Source of the DNA: Phycisphaerae bacterium
GTDB lineage: Bacteria; Planctomycetota; Phycisphaerae; UBA1845
NCBI GenBank assembly: GCA_046754265.1
Contig: JBHHVM010000001.1
Location: 1 to 41,798, forward strand
DNA length: 41,798 nt
Direction: 5' to 3'
Shown: in pieces, positions 9,296 to 32,454 of the stretch
Numbering within the stretch: position 1 is the stretch's first letter
Layout of the letters: each line of letters begins with the position of its first letter
Position numbers and translations under genes: made by a program
The notes under the pieces: model-generated
What the model saw: only the letters and a program-made list of their open reading frames with translations
Databases searched by the model: none
Told to the model about the DNA's origin: nothing

Positions 9296-9532
9296 AGCCT
9301 TGGCGGAACGTTGGGGCCACACGCGCTGCCCGTGATCGGCGGCCAGATAAACTTTCACTGGAATAATTATGCGCTTATACGGGACACCAAGCCCGTCGAT
9401 GGTCAAGAACGGCGGGCCCCTGTTGAGTCATCGGCACCGAAAACCGGCGCAGGATTCGAGGCCCCACATCGAGGTGACCCGTCGGAAGCGGCCTCTCAGG
9501 GCCCGGATGAACCCGGATGTTGCCAAGGAGCC

Positions 9533-11056
9533 ATGCGGTTGACCACGGTCTGCGCTGAACACCTACCCGAAGCGGTAACTCAGTTCAATGAGATGTTGGA
9601 CCGGGCTGCCCGAGAGCTTTACCACCAGATCAACTACGTGGGCGACATTGCCGCGTCGGTAGAAGCCGTGGCCAGTTGCCTCAAGCCCGTCGAGGACGAC
9701 GGGCTCGATGCCGCTTTTGCAGACGTCAACAACGAGTTGATCCGGGTGGCCGGCACCGTGGTAGAGGGGTGCCGGGCGTCGTTGCAAGCGTGTCAGCGCA
9801 CCCATGGAATCCTGGCGGAGTCCATTGCCTCATTCGCTCAACTGCACTCAACGTTCGACCGTTTGACGCAAAGCAGCGAGAAGATCGAAGCGGTGGCTGA
9901 CACGATTGAGGAGTTCGCCGCCCAGACGAGTCTGTTGGCGCTCAACGCCCGGATCGAAGCCGCCCGGGCCGGCCAACACGGGCGCGGGTTTGCGGTGGTC
10001 AGCGAAGAGGTGGGCAAGTTGGCCCACCGCATCAAGACCGAATCGGACTCGATCCAGACGGCCGTGGAAGAGATTACGGGCTGCGTCTCCCAGGCCGGTG
10101 AGATGATCGCCGCAGAGGTCGACAGAAGTCACGAGCAGGAATCGGCCGTCGCGGCCATGATCGAAACCAACGAGCGACTGTTGGCTGATGGACGTTGCGT
10201 CCCGCAGATGGTCGAACGTCTGGACCAGTTCCTCGAACCGCTCGAGCGAGCCCGGGAAGCCATCAGTCACAACCAGATGGCCCGCGTGGCAGCGGCCAAC
10301 GTGGACCGCAACATCAAGAGCATCCATCGGGCCATCCGCCGGGCAGCACCCCAAGGTGCCGACCGTGGCAGTGGGGGTGGGCTCGTTTCGTTGGAGCAAT
10401 TCGTCGATCGATTTGCCGAGCAGCTTACCGAAGGGGTGGATCCTCCTATCGAGTCCATGCTCCAGGAACTCCTCGATACCGGTGCCTCCGGCGTGGAGTG
10501 CCTGGACGCCGTGGGCAAAGCCGTTCAAGCCGCCAACATGCGGCAGAAGCGCCGGCACGTCTCGGTGGGCGACTATTACCTGAACTATCTGGCTGTGGAG
10601 CGGGCGATTAGCCGGCTCAAAGACCGCCTCCCTTCAGCGCCGCAATCCGACATGAAAGTGGTCCTGGGCAACGCCCGGGGCGACTACCACAGCCTGGGTC
10701 GAGAGATGGTCGGGCTGTTTTTGCAGTCTTCGGGGATCGGGGTGATCGACGTCGGCCTGGGGGCCGAGGTGCCCACGTTCGTCGATGCCGTCGCCCGAAG
10801 TGGGGCCAAGGTGGTCGGAGTCTCGTCCTTGCTGGTGGAGTCCGCCAAGCAGATCACCGTCCTGCGCAGCGCCCTGAACCGGCGCGGGCTCGGTTCGGTC
10901 AAGATCGTGGCTGGTGGCGCCTGCTTCACGGTGGACCGCGAGTTCGCCTTTGAGGTCGGGGCCGATCACGTGGCCAGCGCCGCCAGCGACATCATCAACC
11001 TTGTCCAACGGGTTTACGGACACAGCCCATTGGTCTCGGGGGAGGCGTCGCGATGA
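9533..11056 (+). CDS. soluble methyl-accepting chemotaxis signalling domain fused to a C-terminal B12-binding (corrinoid) module
   Basis: Track ORF 9311-11056. The start is placed at ATG 9533, preceded by AAGGAG (9525-9530). The MCP hairpin-tip signature [41 protein letters not shown] lies at 9908-10030. The C-terminal Rossmann-like block [16 protein letters not shown]...VVGVSSLL...KIVAGGA carries a DxHxxG motif (10682-10699) and is preceded by a helical cap region. No TM, HAMP or PAS segment is visible. Confidence 0.8.
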
Positions 11057-12162
11057 ATTCCATTGAACGGGTCCTGGCGGCGCTAACCTTCGGCAAAGCA
11101 GCGCACGGTCCGCCCGATCGGGTGCCGGTTCTGCCGGTTCCGCTGATGCAGGGAGCGCTGGTCTGCGACTGCACGGTGGCTGAGTATTTCGCCATGCCCG
11201 CCGGGCGTATCGCGGAGGCCCAGACCCGCATCAACGAAATGTTCGACGGCATTCCCGACGGGGTGGCGGGTTTTCCACACGTTATCGAGGACGTGACCGC
11301 CTTCGGCGTGGAGTTGGTGCAACACTACCCCAACAGCACGCCAGCCATCGAAGGCATGAGGATCACCGACTTCGAGCAGATCGACGGCTTGAAATGCCCA
11401 TCACCGAAATCGTCCCCCACGCTCCGCAAGACGCTGGAGATCATCGCCCAGCTGGCCGGCGGCATCGGCGAGGAAAAACTGGTCATCGGGGCGGCCATCG
11501 CGCCGTTCAGCCTGCCCAGCATGTTGATGGGTACCTCCAAGTGGATGCGCCTGCTGTTTACCCCCGCGCTGCGAAACCGGTATTTCGAGCGGATCATGGA
11601 CACCTGCCAACGCTTTGTGGTCGATTGGGCCACGCTGCAGCTTCAGGCGGGGGCCCACGTGGTGGTGCTGGCCGACGGCATGGCCTCTGCCACCATGCTG
11701 CCCCGCAACACCTTCCAAGAATTCGCCTTCCCGGTGATCCGCAACACCATCGAGCAAATACAAGGGATGGTGGCTTATGAGGCGGTAGGTCGGATCGAAC
11801 CCCACGTCGATTTATGCGCCAACATCGGCGCAGTGGGCCTGCTGATCGGCCAAGAGGACGACATTGCCAACTGCAAGAAGAAACTGAACGGCCGAGCCGG
11901 CCTGATCGGCAACGTCAACAACTTGAAGATGCGCCGCTGGTCGCCCGCCCGAATCGAAATGCAGGCCAAGACCGCCCTAAAAGCCGGTGCCCCCGGGTTT
12001 GGTTTCGCCCTGGCAAATCAAGGCCCCGAGATTCCGTTCGACACGTCGCTGGACGGTATCGGAGCCCTGATCCGCGCCGTCGAAAAGTACGGCCGATACG
12101 ATCGCAACGTGGACGCAGACTCTGCCGCCCCGCCGCCGCGGCACCAAACCGTAGGCTGCTGA
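11053..12162 (+). CDS. uroporphyrinogen decarboxylase (URO-D) family protein, MtaA/CmuA-like methyltransferase fold
   Basis: 369 aa with ATGA overlap onto the preceding gene. The N-terminal [22 protein letters not shown], the central [14 protein letters not shown]...[12 protein letters not shown] and the C-terminal [19 protein letters not shown] blocks resemble URO-D/MtaA-family TIM barrels. Confidence 0.75.
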
Positions 12163-25505: not shown

Positions 25506-26975
25506 CTAAAACTTGAACGAGTATTGCACGTAAAACAGGTCCGGGTCCTCGCTCTTGCCCGAATTGATGATGAAATTGCTGTCCCAGAAGTGAGAATACC
25601 CCAGCAGCAGGGCCTGGTGTAGGTCGATCTTCCACACGACCGTCACGTCCACCTCGTGCCCGACCTCGGAGCCGCTGTTGCCGAAGGGATCGCGCCGCCC
25701 GGGTTTCCCCCCCGCGTTATACAGTGCGTCCCGATCGGCGTTAAGCCAAAACGCGTGGTAGGCCACGGCTGCCTTGACCTTTTTCTCCACGGGCCAGGCC
25801 GACAGATTGACGTTGACGGCCGTGATGTTCTGCCGCCCGATCAAATCCAGGAACCCCAAATACTTGTGCCCCAGGGGGAACAACTGATCGAACGTGCCCA
25901 CCTTGCCGTCCCGGGGGTCTTCATCGCCGCTGGCCCAGTCGAACCCCGCCCCCAGCCTCGGTTTCCAAGGCACCTGCTTGAAGGTGTAGCCGCCGTCAAC
26001 CGTCCAGCTCCACGCCTGGATGGTATGGCCCGCCCATCGGCCCCATTGACCGGCCAGTTCAGCCTCATAGTCCCACGGGCCCGTCTTGCCCCAGAATCGC
26101 GAGCCCAGCGTAAAGCGAGATTCGTCACCGACCTTCCCATTCGGGTTGCGGCGGCTGCCCGTCCGGTCGGTCGCGAAGAAATACACGTCGATGCCGTGCC
26201 GGGGAATGCCCTTGAATGTGAAATACGCCCCCCAGAAGTCGAACTGCTCGTCAAAGTCGTCCAGCTCCTCCCGCTTGACCACCACCGGCTTGACGTACCA
26301 GACGTCCAGCCTCCAGTCCTTGTCGGTCCAGAAAACTTTAACGCCATCGAACCGCCGGCGGACGTTGGCCCAATCCAGGGGCGACACCAACCGCTCGGTG
26401 CCGTACTGCAGCTCCTGCCGGCCAATCCGAACCGTCAGGTTGGTGTCGTTGCCGAACGGTTTGACGTCCAGGAAGAGCTGATGGATGTCGTAGCGGTTCT
26501 CGTCGATGCCACGCTTGGGCAGGCTGCGCTTCTCGTCCCAGGCGGCCACGCCCTGAAAAAAGACCCGCACAAAATCCTGGTACTTGAAATCGAAGTGCAC
26601 GAAGGAACGGTAAAGCTGAAACGTGTCCTGGGTGCGGGGGTTGGTGTCGAACGATTTGTTCGACTCGGCTTCCAGCCGGAAGCGGAGTTCCCCGCCGAGG
26701 CTCAGAATCAAATCATCGCCCAAGTGGATCCGTTTAATGGGATCAAAAAGGTCCTCTTTATACGAGCCGGGCGGACCGTCCAGATAGCTGAAATCATCGT
26801 CGTACCGCAGATTAAAGTATTTGGGGCCCGGCAACGGCTTTTCCGGTGCCGAGGCCTCCTTTCCAGAAGGTGGAGGAGCCCCATCCGGTGACGCCGGTTG
26901 GGCAAAAACCGGCTGACTGAGCCAGACAGCCAGCACGCCCACGGTCAAGACCCGTCGAATGCTTCGTGCAAACAT
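25506..26975 (-). CDS. alginate export (AlgE-like) family outer-membrane beta-barrel porin
   Basis: Track ORF 25506-27215. The start is placed at ATG 26975 (MFARSIRRVLTVGVLAVWLSQPVFAQP, a signal peptide). The family-typical block is RIGRQELQYGTERLVSPLDWANVRRRFDGVKVFW. The sequence is aromatic-rich with alternating beta strands and a terminal F. Confidence 0.8.
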   Translation of the reverse strand: MFARSIRRVLTVGVLAVWLSQPVFAQPASPDGAPPPSGKEASAPEKPLPGPKYFNLRYDDDFSYLDGPPGSYKEDLFDPIKRIHLGDDLILSLGGELRFRLEAESNKSFDTNPRTQDTFQLYRSFVHFDFKYQDFVRVFFQGVAAWDEKRSLPKRGIDENRYDIHQLFLDVKPFGNDTNLTVRIGRQELQYGTERLVSPLDWANVRRRFDGVKVFWTDKDWRLDVWYVKPVVVKREELDDFDEQFDFWGAYFTFKGIPRHGIDVYFFATDRTGSRRNPNGKVGDESRFTLGSRFWGKTGPWDYEAELAGQWGRWAGHTIQAWSWTVDGGYTFKQVPWKPRLGAGFDWASGDEDPRDGKVGTFDQLFPLGHKYLGFLDLIGRQNITAVNVNLSAWPVEKKVKAAVAYHAFWLNADRDALYNAGGKPGRRDPFGNSGSEVGHEVDVTVVWKIDLHQALLLGYSHFWDSNFIINSGKSEDPDLFYVQYSFKF

Positions 26976-27217
26976 GGTTGTGCTCTCTTGTGGGTTGGAA
27001 ACTGTCACCGCCTCAACCCGGCTGGCTCGAACCGCTCGGGCAACGCCGGGCCGCCGCCAAGGCGGCGCAACCTGGTTTCTATCTTCGGGCAAACCGGGCG
27101 AAATGCTCCACTTTTGGGACACCCTCGCGCCCTGATTCGACCGGAATCCCTCTGCCGATCGGCCTCCTTCAGCCAAATCGGCTTGGGTTTCTTGATAAGC
27201 CCTTACTCCCAACACTG

Positions 27218-28042
27218 TCAGCCTCCGCTGGATCGCTTGGCGGCCACCATGACAACGGCTGACAGGTGATCGTGATAGGCTTGAAGCACCCGCCGCATGG
27301 CCAGCACGCGCCGCCGGGCATCGCCGTGCGTCAGCACGTTGAACAGGAACCGCGCCGTTCCCGCCAACCCTTCGTCGCGCAAAATCCGCCCCGGCTCCAA
27401 CAGGTGCATCGGCGCCGTAGACTGGGCGCTCACTTCAAGATCGTGGGCTTCGAGCAACGCTCGCCAGCCCGAAGGCGTCAACGGCTGGACTGCGTGCCGA
27501 ATCTGGCCGGTCAATTCCCGAGCGATTTCCGCCTGGAGCGACTCGGCTGCGTCATCCGGCGTCACCGCCATCTCGTGAATCGCGTACCGCCCGCCCGATT
27601 TCAGCAGCCGGGCTGCCTCGGCCACGATCCGGTGCTTGATCGAGGCGGCGTGCATGGTCAGCATGGCTTCGCCGTAGACCACCGTGGCGCAGGCGGCCTC
27701 CAGGCCGCTGGCCTGGGCTCGGCCCACTACGCACCGGCAGTTCCCTTCTCTCAACAAGCGCCCCATTCGCTGGGCAGCCTCTGGATCGCCTTCCACAGCC
27801 GTGTACTGGGCCGGGTGCCGCTGGAGGGTCATTCGGGCAGTCGCCCCCATCCCCGGGGCAAACTCCACCACCTGGTCATCCCGGCCGATGTCCAGCGTCT
27901 CCAGCATCCGGCGGGTCAGCTCGATCCCTCCCGGGCGCAACACTTTCTTGCCCAACCGGGCCAGCACCCAATGGCCCGGCGCTTTGTCGGTCGGCGCCCC
28001 GTGACCAAAGTCCGGCGGTTTGTGCTCAGTTTGAGCGTGCAT
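27218..28042 (-). CDS. class I SAM-dependent methyltransferase
   Basis: Track ORF 27218-28072. I prefer ATG 28042, which lies 5 nt after the octahaem stop and has AGGA upstream. Motif I is VVEFAPGMGATA, and the post-I/II blocks resemble Methyltransf_11/25 proteins. The substrate is unknown. Confidence 0.7.
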   Translation of the reverse strand: MHAQTEHKPPDFGHGAPTDKAPGHWVLARLGKKVLRPGGIELTRRMLETLDIGRDDQVVEFAPGMGATARMTLQRHPAQYTAVEGDPEAAQRMGRLLREGNCRCVVGRAQASGLEAACATVVYGEAMLTMHAASIKHRIVAEAARLLKSGGRYAIHEMAVTPDDAAESLQAEIARELTGQIRHAVQPLTPSGWRALLEAHDLEVSAQSTAPMHLLEPGRILRDEGLAGTARFLFNVLTHGDARRRVLAMRRVLQAYHDHLSAVVMVAAKRSSGG

Positions 28043-28047
28043 GAATC

Positions 28048-29640
28048 CTATTCCGAAGCTTCGCCCTGCCATTTATGCTCGGGCCGGGCCAGGATCCCGT
28101 CAATGACCGCTTCCACCGCGTCGGCCTGGGCGGTCTGACCCGCCTGGCGGGCGTGCTCGGCAATCTCGCGGGCCTCGGGGATCAACTCCTGATAAAAGCG
28201 CTCCGCCACTTCGTACATCCCGTGCCAATGGGCATAGTCCGGCGCCATCATCGACGCTCCGTGTCGGGCCCGCCGACCTTCGTGATGCCACAGATAGAAC
28301 CAGGTCCACTCGATCTTCTCGTCGAAGCTGGCCTTGGTGATCAGACCCTGTCTTCGCAGGGCGCCCATGATCAATTGGCCGGGCTTGGCGAATTTCTCGT
28401 TGTAGAGCACGACCAGATCGTCGTACTGCTGGTAGAACGACGTGATGTAATCCGGCGTGTGGCAGTGCATGCACACGTCACTCATCCGGCTGCGCTTGTC
28501 CTGCCAGGTGTCGGTCACCAGGGCCCGGCGCTTGGCGGGGTCGGTTTCCTTGATGACGTGGTGATCCTTGTCGGTGTCCATCGCCAGGCTGACGGGGGGC
28601 CTGTTGGTCCAACTGATCCGCGTGCCGGGGTTGTGCGTGATTTGACCGCCGTTGCGCATGTGCCCCGACATGTGGCAGGTCGCGCAGGTGGGGGCTTGCG
28701 AATAGTCCTGCCCGAGGATCCAGGTTTCGCCGTCCAAGTGCATTTGATCCTTGAGGTCGCGGTAGGCCACGCCGTGCTTGGACTCTTCGTAGATTTCCTT
28801 CTGCGGGTGGTCGGGCCCCAGGTGGCACTTGCCGCAGTTTTCCGGGCGGCGGGCCCGCCGCGGCGAAAAGTCGTGCCGGCTGTGACAGGCCGAGCACGAT
28901 CCCCGCGACCCGTCCAGGTTCAGTCGGCCGATCCCGGTGTTGGGCCAGGTGCCGGGGTGATACTTGGGCTTGCCCTGGCCGTCTTTGAGTACTCGGTCCA
29001 CCGCCTCGGCGTTGGTCGGTCGGCCATCGCCGTCGGGCTTGAGATCGTCCACGCTGATCATGCCGCCGTCGGTGCCTTGCAGGGCCACCTTGCTACCGTG
29101 ACATTGCTTGCAACCGACCGTTGCGCTGGCCCGTCCGTTGACTTGCTTGACGCCCGGTCTGCCCGGCGTGGGCGAATGCGGCGCAAAGGGCTCTCGAGCG
29201 CCCTCCACCACCTCAGCCAGGAAATTGTCCAGCGATGCCAGAATGTTGCCGGCGGCTGCGTGGTGGCTGGCCTCGAACTCCTGGGCCTCGCGAGGATGGC
29301 ACCCGGAGCAATCCCTGGGCGTGACCACCGTGGCGATATGGACGCCGTAGTGCTCAAACCCATCCACGTCCCCTTTTTTGGCCTGGTGACATTCCACACA
29401 GGCGACGCCCTTGCGGGCGTGGGTGCTGGCCTTCCAGTGATCCACGATGCCGGGGCTTGACTGGGCGTGGCACTCGATGCAATCCCGGCTCGCTTCGGGC
29501 ACCATGGCCAACACCGTGGAGAGCGGTCTCTCGGCCGGCGGCAGGTGTTTGCGGGACTCCATCTCAGCCACCATGATCAGGGCCACGCACAGGGCGATGC
29601 CCAGGATGAAGACGACGATACGTTTAGTGTTCAAGGACAT
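28048..29640 (-). CDS. membrane-anchored octahaem cytochrome c, hydroxylamine oxidoreductase (HAO)-like family
   Basis: 530 aa with an N-terminal TM helix (IVVFILGIALCVALIMVA). There are exactly eight CxxCH motifs (CIECH, CVECH, CSGCH, CKQCH, CSACH, CGKCH, CATCH, CMHCH). The blocks CSACHSRHDFS...CGKCHLGPDHPQKEIYEESKHG and WHHEGRRARHGASMMAPDY are ones I recognise as HAO/epsilon-HAO-like. Confidence 0.85.
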   Translation of the reverse strand: MSLNTKRIVVFILGIALCVALIMVAEMESRKHLPPAERPLSTVLAMVPEASRDCIECHAQSSPGIVDHWKASTHARKGVACVECHQAKKGDVDGFEHYGVHIATVVTPRDCSGCHPREAQEFEASHHAAAGNILASLDNFLAEVVEGAREPFAPHSPTPGRPGVKQVNGRASATVGCKQCHGSKVALQGTDGGMISVDDLKPDGDGRPTNAEAVDRVLKDGQGKPKYHPGTWPNTGIGRLNLDGSRGSCSACHSRHDFSPRRARRPENCGKCHLGPDHPQKEIYEESKHGVAYRDLKDQMHLDGETWILGQDYSQAPTCATCHMSGHMRNGGQITHNPGTRISWTNRPPVSLAMDTDKDHHVIKETDPAKRRALVTDTWQDKRSRMSDVCMHCHTPDYITSFYQQYDDLVVLYNEKFAKPGQLIMGALRRQGLITKASFDEKIEWTWFYLWHHEGRRARHGASMMAPDYAHWHGMYEVAERFYQELIPEAREIAEHARQAGQTAQADAVEAVIDGILARPEHKWQGEASE

Positions 29641-29652
29641 CGATGCATACCC

Positions 29653-31128
29653 TCACACCATCGCCTCCCAGACCGTAAAGGCCAGGAAGGTCACAAAGGT
29701 CACGATTCCGACATAGACTCCCAGGTCCTTGCCCGGGGCGATTTTTTCCAAGAGGGCATCAGCCCAGGGCCAGGCCACGATCAAAGCCAGCATCAACCCG
29801 CTCAGCAGCACAGCCGTTTTCAAGCCCATCAGCTTCAGCAGGCGGAACTGGAAGAAGAAATACCACTCCGGCTTGATGTGTTCGGGGGTCAGCAGCGGGT
29901 TGGCTTTCTCACCCATCTCGGCGGGGAAGACCAGCGACAGCAAGGTCAGCAGGAACAGCAGCAGCGTTCCGATCATCACCTCGGTCAGAAGATGATCCGG
30001 GAAGAAGTTGAAGGGCCGATCTTCACCCCGCCCTTCGTGAAATCGGTGGTGACGGGCCGCTCCATAGACCACCGTCAACGCCAGCACCACGGCCGCCACC
30101 ATCCACAACACCGTGTTGGCCGCCTCGTGATGGACCAGGTCGAAGATCAGCTTGCCCAATGCCAGAATGCTGACGAACAGCCAGATCAACAACCCGTAGT
30201 AATGCCCCTTAAACAGCAGCACCGAACCGGTAGCGATCACCACGGCTGCGATGGCCCAGAATATCCGGCTGCCCTCCAGCGTCAGGTCGTGGCCGATCAC
30301 GTTGACAGGTTGGAGGTTCAGGGCAGCCATTAACGCACAGCCCAGGGCGACTACCGCAGCCAGCAGTGCCATTATCCTGACACCGGGCAACCGATGGGCG
30401 GGCCTGCGCTGACCGGGCTCGGTGCCGGTGGGCGTATGCACGAAGGAAAGCTCCGACACGCCGTGGATACGCAGCACGGCAATATGCATGCCGATCAGCA
30501 GAATGATCAGCACCGGCAAGATGCCCACGTGCAGATTGAACATTCGCGTCAGCGTGTTGGGGCCTATCTCGCTGCCGCCGCGCATGAAGGTGGCCAGCGC
30601 CTCGCCAACAACCGGGACCGACGCGGTCAGCTCCGTGGCGACGGTGATGCCCCAATAGCTGAGCTGCTCGTAGATCAGCGAATACCCCGTAAAGCCCATG
30701 GTCAGCGTGACCAGCAACAGGCACACGCCGAGGATCCAGTTCAGTTGCCGCGGGTGCCGAAACGCGCACGAGAAGAAGACTCGGGACATGTGCAGGATGA
30801 CCGTGATGATCATCAAGTTGCCGGCCCATTTGTGGACGCTACGCAGGAACCAGCCGAAAGGCACGACCCGCGTGATGGCATCGACGCTCTCGTAGGCCCG
30901 ATCGGCCGAGGGCACGTAATAGAACGCCAGCAGGATGCCGGTCGTGATTTGAATCAAGAATAGATAGGCCGGCGTTCCCCCCAGGGCGAACCACCACCGC
31001 TTGATGTGCCCCGGGACCGGTTCGTTGGTGACCTCCTCGACCTTGCCCCAATCGACCGGCAGCAACTGCCAAAGCCGGCCGCCGGAGCTTCGGGTAGACG
31101 ACGGGCCCGGCCTGGCGGGTTCAACCAT
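29653..31128 (-). CDS. cytochrome b (b6-type) fused to subunit IV, with an internal multi-helix insertion
   Basis: 491 aa that aligns by eye with cytochrome b6 (WFALGG...FGWFLRSVHKWAGNLMIITVILH...GYSL...YWG...RGG...TLTR). The His pairs are H99/H113 and H200/H215. The PEWY Qo motif lies at residues 419-422 (29860-29871). About 110 extra residues with four hydrophobic helices lie between the two parts. Confidence 0.9.
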   Translation of the reverse strand: MVEPARPGPSSTRSSGGRLWQLLPVDWGKVEEVTNEPVPGHIKRWWFALGGTPAYLFLIQITTGILLAFYYVPSADRAYESVDAITRVVPFGWFLRSVHKWAGNLMIITVILHMSRVFFSCAFRHPRQLNWILGVCLLLVTLTMGFTGYSLIYEQLSYWGITVATELTASVPVVGEALATFMRGGSEIGPNTLTRMFNLHVGILPVLIILLIGMHIAVLRIHGVSELSFVHTPTGTEPGQRRPAHRLPGVRIMALLAAVVALGCALMAALNLQPVNVIGHDLTLEGSRIFWAIAAVVIATGSVLLFKGHYYGLLIWLFVSILALGKLIFDLVHHEAANTVLWMVAAVVLALTVVYGAARHHRFHEGRGEDRPFNFFPDHLLTEVMIGTLLLFLLTLLSLVFPAEMGEKANPLLTPEHIKPEWYFFFQFRLLKLMGLKTAVLLSGLMLALIVAWPWADALLEKIAPGKDLGVYVGIVTFVTFLAFTVWEAMV

Positions 31129-31624
31129 GATAAGCAGCCTCCGCCGACACCATCACGAACACGCAGCCGGTCGCCGGGTTTACCTTCACGTCGTAGGTCA
31201 GCAGGTTCTTGTTCTCCTTGGCTGGGGGGCCCGAAACCGCCTTGCCGTTCTTGTCAAACACGCCCTGGTGGCACGGACAGAGGAATTGCTGGTCTCCGGG
31301 CGAGAAATGCACCTTGCAGCCCAGGTGCGGGCACTTGCTGGACAGCGCTTTGAAGCCCCGGGCTGGGTCCTGGGCATCGGTGCCCGTTCGGGCAATGGCG
31401 ATTTCCTGGCCTGCTGGGTCCTTCACCGTCAAAGATGCTCCCACCGGGATGGATTTCAAGGTGCCTACGAACATTTCTCGCCGCGTGCGAGTCGCCTTCA
31501 ATGGAACCAAGTAGCGCAAGAAATGCCACGCCCCAAGGCCATACCCCGCCAAAAGCCCCGCACCCATCAACAGGCTGACCACAAAGCCGCGTCGTCCGTC
31601 GGATTGGGGCGGGTTCGCTGCCAT
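31121..31624 (-). CDS. Rieske 2Fe-2S protein of a Rieske/cytochrome b complex
   Basis: 167 aa with a twin-arginine-like GRRGFVVSLL plus a TM helix. Cluster-binding boxes are CPHLGC (31315-31332) and CPCH (31267-31278). It overlaps the cytochrome b start by 8 nt. Confidence 0.9.
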   Translation of the reverse strand: MAANPPQSDGRRGFVVSLLMGAGLLAGYGLGAWHFLRYLVPLKATRTRREMFVGTLKSIPVGASLTVKDPAGQEIAIARTGTDAQDPARGFKALSSKCPHLGCKVHFSPGDQQFLCPCHQGVFDKNGKAVSGPPAKENKNLLTYDVKVNPATGCVFVMVSAEAAYHG

Positions 31625-31833
31625 GGAGCGCAGAACTCATACGCCCGCCTTACCAGTCGGGCAGAAGACAACCCTGGGGATCCTGGGCGCGCCATGAGGG
31701 CGTCGCCGCAACGATCGGGATTATCGACCACCCGACGCGCCAAGGCCTTGACGGTCGTCAAGCCGGGTGCGTTTTACCTGTGAAATGCCGCCCGGGGCTG
31801 CATGGTCTTGGCCGTTCGGCTAGAATGTGCGTC

Positions 31834-32454
31834 ATGAAGATTCCCGACGTGGACATTCCGGTGACTGCGGTCCGTGTCCCAATGGAGTGGATCATGCGCG
31901 CAGAACGAGCGGTGGAAAAGGTTCGTGAGCGGTTGCTTCGTACCTGCCGGGCGCTGGAAGGGGCGAGCGTGCCCTACGTCGTGATTGGCGGCAATGCCGT
32001 GGCGATCTGGGTCGGCAGCAAAGACGAGGGGGCCATCCGCAACACCAAGGACGTGGACGTGCTTCTGAATCGCGCCGACCTGCCCCGCGCCGCCGAAGCG
32101 ATGTCGGCCGCCGGTTTCGATATGGCCGAGGTTAACGGCATAACCATGTTCCTCGATCAGGCTGATCCGATGCCCAGCCGCGGCGTCCATGTCCTCTTCG
32201 CGGGCGAACCGATCAAGCCACACGATCTCCATCCCGCCCCGCCTGTGGTCAAGGGCATCCGCAGCCCCGAGGGCGTGGACGCCATCGAACTGCGCGAACT
32301 GTTGATCTTGAAGCTCATCGCCTTCCGTCGAATCGATCAAGTACACATCGCCGACATGATCCGCGTCGACCTGATCGACGACGCCGTGGCCGAGCAGATC
32401 CCCGCGGAACTGCGCCCACGCCTGGAAGAAATCCGGGCGGACCCGGATGGGTAA
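31834..32454 (+). CDS. nucleotidyltransferase-fold protein (minimal NTase / AbiEii-like pattern), solitary
   Basis: Track ORF 31780-32454; the start is possibly ATG 31834. The pattern VVIGGNAVAIWVGSKDEGAIRNTKDVDVLL is G-G-x(n)-D-x-D, followed by VHVLF and a helical LILKLIAFRRIDQVHIADMI tail. The mirror minus-strand ORF was rejected. Confidence 0.55.
   Translation: MKIPDVDIPVTAVRVPMEWIMRAERAVEKVRERLLRTCRALEGASVPYVVIGGNAVAIWVGSKDEGAIRNTKDVDVLLNRADLPRAAEAMSAAGFDMAEVNGITMFLDQADPMPSRGVHVLFAGEPIKPHDLHPAPPVVKGIRSPEGVDAIELRELLILKLIAFRRIDQVHIADMIRVDLIDDAVAEQIPAELRPRLEEIRADPDG

Follow-up and report, generated by a model that had tools for sequence, protein, structure and literature searches.

A Rieske/cytochrome b operon encoding an HAO-family octahaem cytochrome in a Phycisphaerae genome: a candidate menaquinol:nitrite oxidoreductase

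Can a Rieske/cytochrome b module possess, as its c-type subunit, an enzyme of the hydroxylamine oxidoreductase (HAO) family? This question is raised by a locus on contig JBHHVM010000001.1 of a Phycisphaerae metagenome-assembled genome (MAG), where a Rieske [2Fe-2S] protein, a cytochrome b, an octahaem cytochrome c and a class I S-adenosylmethionine (SAM) methyltransferase are encoded one after the other on the minus strand. The whole stretch of DNA analysed, hereafter the window, comprises 41,798 nt, and the public record labels the octahaem protein only as 'multiheme c-type cytochrome'. A previous reading of the DNA letters (the sequence-only reading) had proposed that a quinol-oxidising module is joined here to an HAO-like subunit. 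Family membership, active-site motifs and synteny speak for such a junction. The answer to which we lean, with somewhat better than even confidence, is that the first three genes encode one membrane complex, which would function as a Q-cycle-coupled menaquinol:nitrite (or NO/hydroxylamine) oxidoreductase and would also feed NapAB where these proteins are present.

The octahaem cytochrome

The profile scan of the 530-aa product assigns it to the HAO family PF13447, with a score well above the cut-off (Table 1). The matches in the PDB are IhOCC (4qo5, 4e-38), Kustc0458 (6h5l, 3e-24), the N. europaea enzyme NeHAO (4fas, 4e-17), 4n4j (7e-16) and 6hif (3e-15), and a search with the family profile lifts IhOCC, Kustc0458 and NeHAO to 2e-50, 3e-31 and 3e-20, respectively. 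The strong relatives of known structure all belong to the HAO clade (IhOCC, HAOr, HAO, KsHOX and HDH); NrfA and ONR are marginal, with E values of 0.002-0.06. The sequence contains eight CxxCH and zero CxxCK motifs, and the same is observed in all of the 120 best homologues (68-100 % identical, out of at least 8000 candidates at E <= 1e-10 in a search of 90 %-clusters). Membership of the NrfA or ONR families was rejected, owing to the lack of CxxCK and to these marginal matches. By these comparisons the octahaem is a true member of the HAO family, and its closest solved relative is IhOCC. The sequence-only reading had placed the protein in a catalytic HAO family and not among the carriers; the Pfam, PDB and family-profile matches, together with the invariant Asp-His pair described below, bear this out. 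Its choice of HAO as nearest kin holds at the level of the family, the nearest characterised relative being the archaeal IhOCC and neither the N. europaea HAO nor the anammox HAOs.

The fourth CxxCH motif of the octahaem (CKQCH, C177-H181) aligns with the fourth motif of IhOCC, which in the HAO family corresponds to the position of the catalytic haem 4 (PMC8042395, PMC9250108). In the HMMER alignment to 4fas/1fgj, the residues Asp277 and His278 fall on the distal pair Asp267-His268 of N. europaea HAO. This pair is invariant in an alignment of 28 sequences, and the D-H-P motif was detected in 117 of the 120 homologues, the other three being unmatched. Kustc0458 carries the identical motif GPDHP, whereas IhOCC has Asp-Val in place of Asp-His. 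Arg347 is included in the motif W(T/S/N)NRPP, invariant in the 120 homologues, and aligns with Tyr334 of the active-site pocket of N. europaea HAO; judging from this alignment only, Arg347 would line the haem 4 pocket. Fourteen His located outside the CxxCH motifs are invariant in the 28 sequences, which is enough for the seven distal haem ligands, and five His (His74, His97, His256, His289 and His336) align with His residues of N. europaea HAO. The C-terminal helices, which build the trimer in the HAO family, are present and conserved. One may speculate on a resemblance of His278 and Arg347 to two residues of the Tyr/His/Arg triad found in ammonifying enzymes (PMC8042395), which would hint at ammonium over NO as the product. 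A model was built with AlphaFold2 (AF2) from the 28-sequence alignment; its mean predicted local distance difference test value (pLDDT) is 61.6, with values under 50 over residues 233-354, where the protein is most conserved. A Foldseek search of the PDB with this model, itself poor, gave nothing at E <= 0.001.

The presence of a Tyr cross-link separates the oxidative from the reductive HAOs, and the homologues devoid of it are reductases (PMC8042395). In N. europaea HAO, whose C-terminus was checked against 4fas (100 % match, chain residues 356-546), this residue is Tyr467 in the sequence GGWTYTEGWG, and KsHOX displays NQTYGNG. The octahaem of the window has a Tyr in the same loop, Tyr469. 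If this residue were cross-linked to haem 4 of the neighbouring subunit (P460), the protein would oxidise hydroxylamine or NO and deliver the electrons to the quinone pool or to a periplasmic acceptor, an alternative that we hold to be highly improbable. It draws on the conservation of Tyr469 (of the 114 matches to the motif in close homologues, 113 have a Tyr there), and on a register that takes the beginning of the last helix as its origin, where Tyr469 falls on Tyr467 with equal spacing (5 residues to Gly). The hhalign comparison of the family profile with HAO ended at residue 438, before the cross-link loop, and a MAFFT alignment of 60 family tails, of uncertain register, was used instead. 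This alignment puts the cross-link Tyr of HAO and KsHOX on the invariant Trp472 of the octahaem and on a Phe of IhOCC, Tyr469 being situated three columns ahead. Position 469 is moreover a Phe in P0034, a full-length orthologue with an intact operon (loci L005/L083), and a Tyr, Phe or Trp in the wider family; it is a Trp in IhOCC, which is reported to have no P460 (PMC9250108). The octahaem reaches 75.9 bits with the NCBIfam HDH equivalog, the cut-off of which is 900. In addition, a Rieske/b complex running in reverse would cost energy, and the neighbours found in the relatives (NapA, Hcp) are reductases. Taken together, these data lean towards the absence of a P460 cross-link, and by the rule given above the octahaem would then be a reductase.

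The N-terminal transmembrane helix noticed in the sequence-only reading is recovered as a hydrophobic stretch of 19 residues (residues 8-26), which is found in nearly all of the 120 homologues with a mean Kyte-Doolittle value of 2.44. This stretch is followed by a conserved segment of acidic and basic residues instead of a typical AxA cleavage site (8 printed and 28 aligned N-termini, by eye). Lys6, Leu21, Val24 and Glu28 are invariant in the 28-sequence alignment, and AF2 predicts a single helix over residues 3-31, with pLDDT values of 86-92 for residues 1-20. We read this helix as an uncleaved signal anchor. Among HAO-like representatives further away, ordinary signal peptides prevail.

The Rieske and cytochrome b genes and their recurrence

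The positions of the open reading frames (ORFs) agree with the four co-directional minus-strand genes recognised earlier between 27218 and 31624. The Rieske and cytochrome b genes overlap by 8 nt and a gap of 12 nt separates the cytochrome b gene from the octahaem gene, as previously described. The third junction, given as +5 nt, applies only to the second ATG of the methyltransferase gene (28042), the first ATG (28072) overlapping the end of the octahaem gene by 25 nt. The octahaem gene is the only gene of a c-type cytochrome in the cluster, where neither c1 nor f nor a small mono- or dihaem c is encoded, and the first two junctions leave no room for another one. On the opposite strand, three ORFs of 290-461 aa, 28075-29460 (+), 29467-30333 (+) and 27266-28138 (+), run antisense to the octahaem, cytochrome b and methyltransferase genes; reverse frames with few stop codons are usual in DNA of 63 % G+C, and these three are probably of that kind. 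A scan for sigma-70 promoters gave no promoter-like site, with a consensus that is not informative for this phylum, and a scan for terminators gave terminator-like sites at no more than chance level.

The motifs listed in the sequence-only reading are all read in the translations: CPHLGC, CPCH and RRGF in the Rieske protein, the His pairs and PEWY in cytochrome b, and the eight CxxCH in the octahaem. The Rieske protein begins with a twin-arginine N-terminus (GRRGF) with a membrane anchor, and CPHLGC and CPCH are its cluster boxes. Its best solved relative is 9rk4, the Kuste4569 protein of the Kuenenia complex R/b-3 (2.5e-10), ahead of the Rieske proteins of cytochrome b6f. For the relatives, all counts out of 80 given here refer to the best 80 of at least 594 loci detected with the octahaem in GTDB contigs, with one genome per species. 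The cluster boxes are found in 80 Rieske ORFs of the family, with the RR motif upstream in 74 of them. The two positions that tune the potential are occupied by Gly and Phe in 80 of 80, instead of Ser and Tyr as in Kuste4569, whose potential is +303 mV (PMC12954380). This replacement predicts a cluster with a potential about 200 mV lower, of the menaquinol type, according to the mutant data quoted in PMC12954380.

The cytochrome b is composed of two recognisable parts. Residues ~31-225 align with b6 (best PDB match, 1.5e-50) over the four-helix part and include all four haem-ligand His, and residues ~381-459 align with subunit IV, PEWY included. An insert of ~140 residues (about 233-373) lies between them and reads as about four extra hydrophobic or transmembrane helices. 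This long cytochrome b with AxGG and PEWY is common to the closest relatives (L001-L006, L009 and L020), most of the family having a fusion of ~349 aa. At the position of the haem-cn Cys, the window displays an Ala (WWFALGG); in the cytochrome b ORFs of the relatives, the motif is CxGG in 42/80 and AxGG in 38/80. The CxGG haem-cn motif has been noted for Planctomycetes (PMC5600118).

An exhaustive search of 50 %-clusters with the octahaem detected 1936 clusters at E <= 1e-3 and 267 at E <= 1e-30. Among the best 80 of the species-genome loci, the carriers belong to the Planctomycetota, Acidobacteriota/Thermoanaerobaculia, Gemmatimonadota, Myxococcota (Haliangium), Chloroflexota (Anaerolineales), Binatia, Krumholzibacteriota, Eiseniibacteriota and others. 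The module is spread over at least 10 phyla, and the idea of a peculiarity of the Planctomycetota has to be abandoned. Of the three proteins, the octahaem varies least, with 66-77 % identity to the window, followed by cytochrome b (47-73 %) and the Rieske protein (36-63 %). The Rieske and cytochrome b genes are located directly upstream of the octahaem gene, in the same order, in 73 of the 80 loci. Six of the seven exceptions are contig ends, three of which start inside the cytochrome b gene and three within ~210 nt of the octahaem gene. The three genes are co-conserved, a lack of which would by its own terms have refuted the sequence-only reading; the methyltransferase gene does not share this conservation, having a homologue beside the octahaem gene in a single locus (L002).

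The seventh exception, a Planctomycetota MAG (L070, 440-4260), is the sole locus with ample upstream DNA but without Rieske and cytochrome b genes. Its operon encodes, in this order, an Rrf2 regulator, Hcp (hydroxylamine reductase) and an octahaem 71 % identical to that of the window, which begins with a signal peptide of the cleavable type (…LLLAQAAAAQEAG…) in place of the anchor. In this one case, the anchor goes with the Rieske and cytochrome b genes, and the octahaem keeps N-oxide company even when uncoupled from them. Its sequence makes the L070 protein a soluble form of the octahaem enzyme, in surroundings that resemble those of a nitrosative-stress response. The existence of such an octahaem without Rieske and cytochrome b could suggest that the products of the module are mere neighbours, the octahaem being an independent membrane-tethered periplasmic enzyme with other electron donors; that the complex is known from gene data alone also leaves room for this explanation. 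We consider it very improbable, since the same order and tight junctions are kept in 73/80 loci from many phyla with otherwise unrelated surroundings. Furthermore, the octahaem fills the operon position of the c-type subunit, no other c-type gene being available for the Rieske protein to reduce, and the anchor has been lost exactly where Rieske and cytochrome b have been lost.

The genes that adjoin the module in the relatives bear on the substrate. They are detectable only where they were specifically probed for. napA is found directly downstream of the octahaem gene in 33/80 loci, then napB in 27/80, and the napA product of L081 is a NapA equivalog (1003.7 bits for a cut-off of 904). Among the napAB clusters, gene lists or scans were made for L081, L082, L001 and L002, and none of these four showed napC or napGH. 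hcp, a hydroxylamine reductase equivalog (807 bits), adjoins the cluster in 4/80 loci: beside the full module it is situated directly downstream in L015 (7703-8971) and L040 (7715-8974), and upstream and divergent in a Haliangium MAG (L014, 2856-4124). A regulator of the Rrf2 family adjoins the cluster in 7/80 loci. Elsewhere, in about half of the loci, the three genes form bare operons amid unrelated or housekeeping genes. Within the 41.8-kb window, tblastn gave no match to napA, napB or Rrf2, and the Pfam scans of the larger ORFs revealed no other N-cycle gene. The N-oxide role suggested by the sequence-only reading is strengthened by the napA, napB and hcp genes of the relatives, and the octahaem is the presumed catalytic subunit.

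The same neighbourhoods admit a reading in which the octahaem is mainly a wire, that is the equivalent of cytochrome c1 or f in a general menaquinol:periplasmic-acceptor oxidoreductase (serving NapB, cytochromes c or oxidases), with an HAO site whose physiological importance is secondary or nil. This is the main rival of a nitrite-reducing complex, although we regard it as unlikely. The inspected clusters contain napAB without napC or napGH after the octahaem gene, so that electrons have to be handed over to NapB anyway. In many loci the three genes form an operon of their own amid housekeeping genes, and their very high conservation from phylum to phylum would fit a core component of respiration. 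A survey of the Phycisphaerales reports no bc1 complex (PMC11266412), so that the module could be the main complex III; however, these bacteria encode alternative complex III (PMC11266412) and have no need of a second general complex III. For a pure wire, an invariant distal Asp-His pair and an invariant Arg motif would also be needless, and the soluble orthologue of L070, accompanied by hcp and Rrf2 and deprived of Rieske and cytochrome b, is indicative of catalysis by the octahaem itself.

Alternatively, the octahaem could be a catalytic reductase for another substrate, for instance sulfite, tetrathionate, a peroxide-type or a metal acceptor. The multihaem enzymes of this superfamily are promiscuous, several N and S oxyanions being in vitro substrates of MccA, OTR, NrfA and IhOCC alike (PMC9250108, PMC8042395), the host of IhOCC is a sulfur-reducing archaeon without known N-oxide respiration (PMC4429474), and no N-cycle neighbour appears in the Pfam scans of the window. 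We nevertheless judge this alternative rather improbable. The recurrent neighbours are NapA, NapB, Hcp and Rrf2, with the restriction that only the genes probed for could be detected, so that sulfur-cycle neighbours may be present as well. The pocket of the octahaem is formed by the Asp-His pair of HAO; MccA has a copper site and OTR has a Lys ligation, which are both different from this arrangement.

The proposed reaction and its weight

From the gene content, the family membership, the conserved motifs and the synteny, we infer a physical complex, an electron path, a substrate and a product. Menaquinol would be oxidised at the PEWY Qo site by the low-potential Rieske protein and the b6-like cytochrome b. 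One electron would return to the quinone pool via the two b haems, in a proton-motive Q-cycle. The other would pass via the Rieske cluster into the anchored octahaem, which would stand in for cytochrome c1 or f and which its N-terminal transmembrane helix would tether to the complex. The bis-His haems would then relay the electrons to a five-coordinate haem 4, in a pocket made of the Asp-His pair and the invariant Arg, where nitrite and/or NO or hydroxylamine would be reduced, to ammonium or NO. Where napAB is included in the operon, the octahaem would also supply NapB, and the periplasmic reduction of nitrate would be coupled to the Q-cycle too. As napAB is missing in the window, only the quinol:N-oxide reductase part would remain there.

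Several points weigh against a nitrite-reducing complex of this kind. The window contains no nap, nir, nor or hcp gene, and its N-oxide context is borrowed from the relatives. The module is known from sequence alone, and the physiological substrate of IhOCC, its closest solved relative, is itself not established. The HAO-family proteins are trimers and the Rieske/b complexes are dimers, and the geometry of their docking is a puzzle. Tyr469 sits in the loop of the cross-link Tyr of the oxidative HAOs, and one of the two registers would superpose them. The bare operons of about half of the loci and an identity of ~70 % across phyla could equally fit a general respiratory role. Finally, the AF2 model, poor and devoid of haems, gives no check of the five-coordination of haem 4 or of the position of Arg347.

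The reduction of periplasmic nitrate or nitrite via quinol dehydrogenases of the NapC or NrfH type is regarded as non-electrogenic. With a Rieske/cytochrome b front end this reduction would become proton-motive, which would alter the energy yield of nitrate ammonification or NO formation in a large number of bacteria from soil, sediment and wastewater. If the proposal is true, nitrite reduction would be proton-motive in many Planctomycetota, Acidobacteriota, Gemmatimonadota, Myxococcota and Chloroflexota, and surveys that take nrfA, onr, nirK and nirS as markers would fail to see it. In such a complex, a trimer would have to be docked on a dimer. It would also represent a simple, possibly cultivable model for the anammox complex R/b-3, for whose HAO-like subunit neither assays nor models have succeeded (PMC12485887, PMC12954380). 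HAO-like genes have been reported for Poriferisphaera corsica and Aquisphaera giovannonii (PMC11266412, PMC12758564), and some carriers of the module may be cultivable.

An HAO-like octahaem on a Rieske/cytochrome b complex has already been proposed for Kuenenia (R/b-3), and a similar gene string has been drawn for Caldithrix abyssi; the module would be a minimal relative of both. The literature search, which mostly covered articles outside the subscription journals, found no biochemical study of the three-gene module, in agreement with its earlier designation as uncharacterised, nor any description of the anchor-bearing module or of its breadth. In a survey of the Phycisphaerae, the Hao-like gene was seen as a 'putative Onr' and was not tied to Rieske/cytochrome b (PMC11266412), and a global screen of ammonifiers used only nrfA and onr (PMC10716430). 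The public annotations of the octahaem are 'multiheme c-type cytochrome', 'hypothetical protein' or 'hydroxylamine oxidoreductase'. With such annotations and with surveys based on other markers, the guild that carries the module has probably been missed. The presence of the module in hundreds of public genomes makes it ordinary, and its interest lies in being apparently unstudied. It is conceivable, at somewhat less than even confidence, that it represents an overlooked and widespread Q-cycle-coupled menaquinol:nitrite oxidoreductase in which the HAO-family enzyme itself is the c subunit, and which together with NapAB would form a chain from menaquinol and nitrate to ammonium or NO.

Surroundings of the module and known systems

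The methyltransferase gene that follows the octahaem gene was considered as a member of the module, or as a maturation or accessory factor, and was rejected on the basis of its recurrence in 1/80 loci; its product matches the DVU_1556 family weakly (51.8 bits for a cut-off of 155). The next gene encodes an outer-membrane beta-barrel of the Alginate_exp family (Table 1), homologues of which are found near the cluster in 12/80 loci and directly after napAB in L001 and L002. This barrel is a possible anion (nitrate/nitrite) channel into the periplasm, and a loosely associated neighbour. The gene order is octahaem-napA-napB-porin in L001 (7572-11361), octahaem-methyltransferase-napA-napB-porin in L002 (4695-9467) and octahaem-methyltransferase-porin in the window. 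As the nearest relatives have napAB before the porin and the window has not, this looks like a lineage-specific loss of napAB, of which no remnant was detected in the window.

Table 1. Positions in the window of the Rieske/cytochrome b/octahaem genes, of residues of the octahaem and of adjacent features.
Feature	Position	Strand	Basis
Rieske [2Fe-2S] subunit, 167 aa	31121..31624	-	ORF; Pfam Rieske 2.9e-10, 40.3 bits
Cytochrome b, 491 aa	29653..31128	-	ORF; Pfam Cytochrome_B 176.6 bits and Cytochrom_B_C; confirmed with NCBIfam
HAO-family octahaem cytochrome c, 530 aa	28048..29640	-	PF13447 1.1e-21, 77.8 bits (cut-off 21.9)
N-terminal hydrophobic helix of the octahaem, residues 8-26, IVVFILGIALCVALIMVAE	29563..29619	-	Translation
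Fourth CxxCH of the octahaem, CKQCH, C177-H181	29098..29112	-	Translation
Asp277-His278 of the octahaem	28807..28812	-	Translation and HMMER alignment to 4fas/1fgj
Arg347 of the octahaem, W(T/S/N)NRPP motif	28600..28602	-	Translation and alignment
Class I SAM methyltransferase, 284 aa	27218..28072 (alternative start 28042)	-	Pfam Methyltransf_11/25, Methyltransf_11 29.4 bits
Alginate_exp-family outer-membrane beta-barrel	25506..27215 (probable start 26975)	-	PF13372 8e-96; signal peptide MFARSIRRVLTVGVLAVWLSQPVFA
Intergenic region, 155 nt, between the Rieske gene and the divergent gene 31780-32454 (+)	31625..31779	.	Presumed promoter region of the operon

By Pfam, the other larger ORFs of the window are housekeeping genes: NIF3, aminotransferases, a chorismate-binding enzyme, Rho, an aldo-keto reductase and others. 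Elsewhere in the window, the gene at 9311-11056 (+) combines in one protein a signalling domain of methyl-accepting chemotaxis proteins (MCP) and a C-terminal B12-binding domain. It overlaps by 4 nt the gene at 11053-12162 (+), which encodes a protein of the URO-D family (corrinoid methyltransferase fold). This pairing is unusual and might represent a cobalamin-linked chemoreceptor.

IhOCC (Igni_0955, 4QO5) of Ignicoccus hospitalis aligns with the octahaem over all four blocks, C-terminal helices included. It has eight CxxCH in the HAO arrangement, belongs to the clade of HAO and HDH, has itself no P460 and is described as a nitrite reductase (PMC9250108). It differs from the octahaem of the window in being archaeal, in occurring in soluble and membrane fractions and in having no reported link to Rieske/cytochrome b (PMC4429474); besides Asp-Val for Asp-His, it has Trp and Phe in place of Tyr469 and Trp472. 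The HAOr Kustc0458/7 (6H5L) and epsilonHao also resemble the octahaem; they have no Tyr cross-link, and their in vitro substrates are hydroxylamine and nitrite, which HAOr converts to NO (PMC8042395). HAOr shares the active-site motif GPDHP but has no Arg at the position of Arg347. Contrary to the octahaem of the window, these enzymes are soluble, have partners of their own (the dihaem Kustc0457) and are not encoded with Rieske/cytochrome b.

The cytochrome b6f and the menaquinol:cytochrome c reductases of the Firmicute type display the same b6-type His spacing, the PEWY of subunit IV and a Rieske protein of the twin-arginine (Tat) type, and share CxGG with about half of the family. Their c subunit is cytochrome f or a mono- or dihaem c, whereas the window has an HAO-family octahaem, and its cytochrome b is a single chain of 491 aa with approximately four extra helices and without the haem-cn Cys.

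The complex R/b-3 of Kuenenia stuttgartiensis (Kuste4569-4574) associates a Rieske protein, a b6-like cytochrome b and a subunit IV with the HAO-like Kuste4574, which is proposed to reduce nitrite, its activity being unproven (PMC12485887, PMC12954380); modelling of the docking of Kuste4574 with AlphaFold3 failed (PMC12954380). The likeness to the Kuenenia Rieske/b complexes evoked in the sequence-only reading extends to the kinship of the Rieske proteins (9rk4) and to the HAO-like subunit, but not to the further subunits. Two more subunits of R/b-3, one of c type with six or eight haems and one an NAD(P) oxidoreductase, are found neither in the cluster of the window or its flanks nor in the clusters of the inspected relatives. 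The Rieske protein of R/b-3 has Ser and Tyr where the module has Gly and Phe. Kuste4574 is a close homologue of HAOr, whereas the octahaem of the window is nearer to IhOCC, and R/b-3 belongs to an anammox bacterium, in whose anammoxosome membrane it is located. An anammox affiliation was rejected on account of the missing R/b-3 subunits, of the score far below the cut-off of the HDH equivalog and of the origin from a Phycisphaerae MAG.

The window also departs from the Nap-linked clusters of 'Hao-enabled' nitrate ammonification, since it has no nap genes, which are present in part of its relatives. A similar gene string was drawn in 2017 for Caldithrix abyssi (Cabys_2564-2556), with the order Rieske, cytochrome b, Hao-like octahaem next to nap (PMC5317091). 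For this bacterium it was proposed that quinol is oxidised by the Rieske/cytochrome b proteins and that the electrons go to NapM and/or directly to the octahaem; it reduces nitrate, and in the absence of NrfA its epsilonHao is predicted to make ammonium from nitrite (PMC5317091). There, the Hao is called periplasmic, NapM is the likely mediator and a nap set of the napM/G/H type lies upstream (PMC5317091). In the family of the window, by contrast, a conserved anchor is part of the octahaem itself, and napAB, where they occur, come after the octahaem gene.

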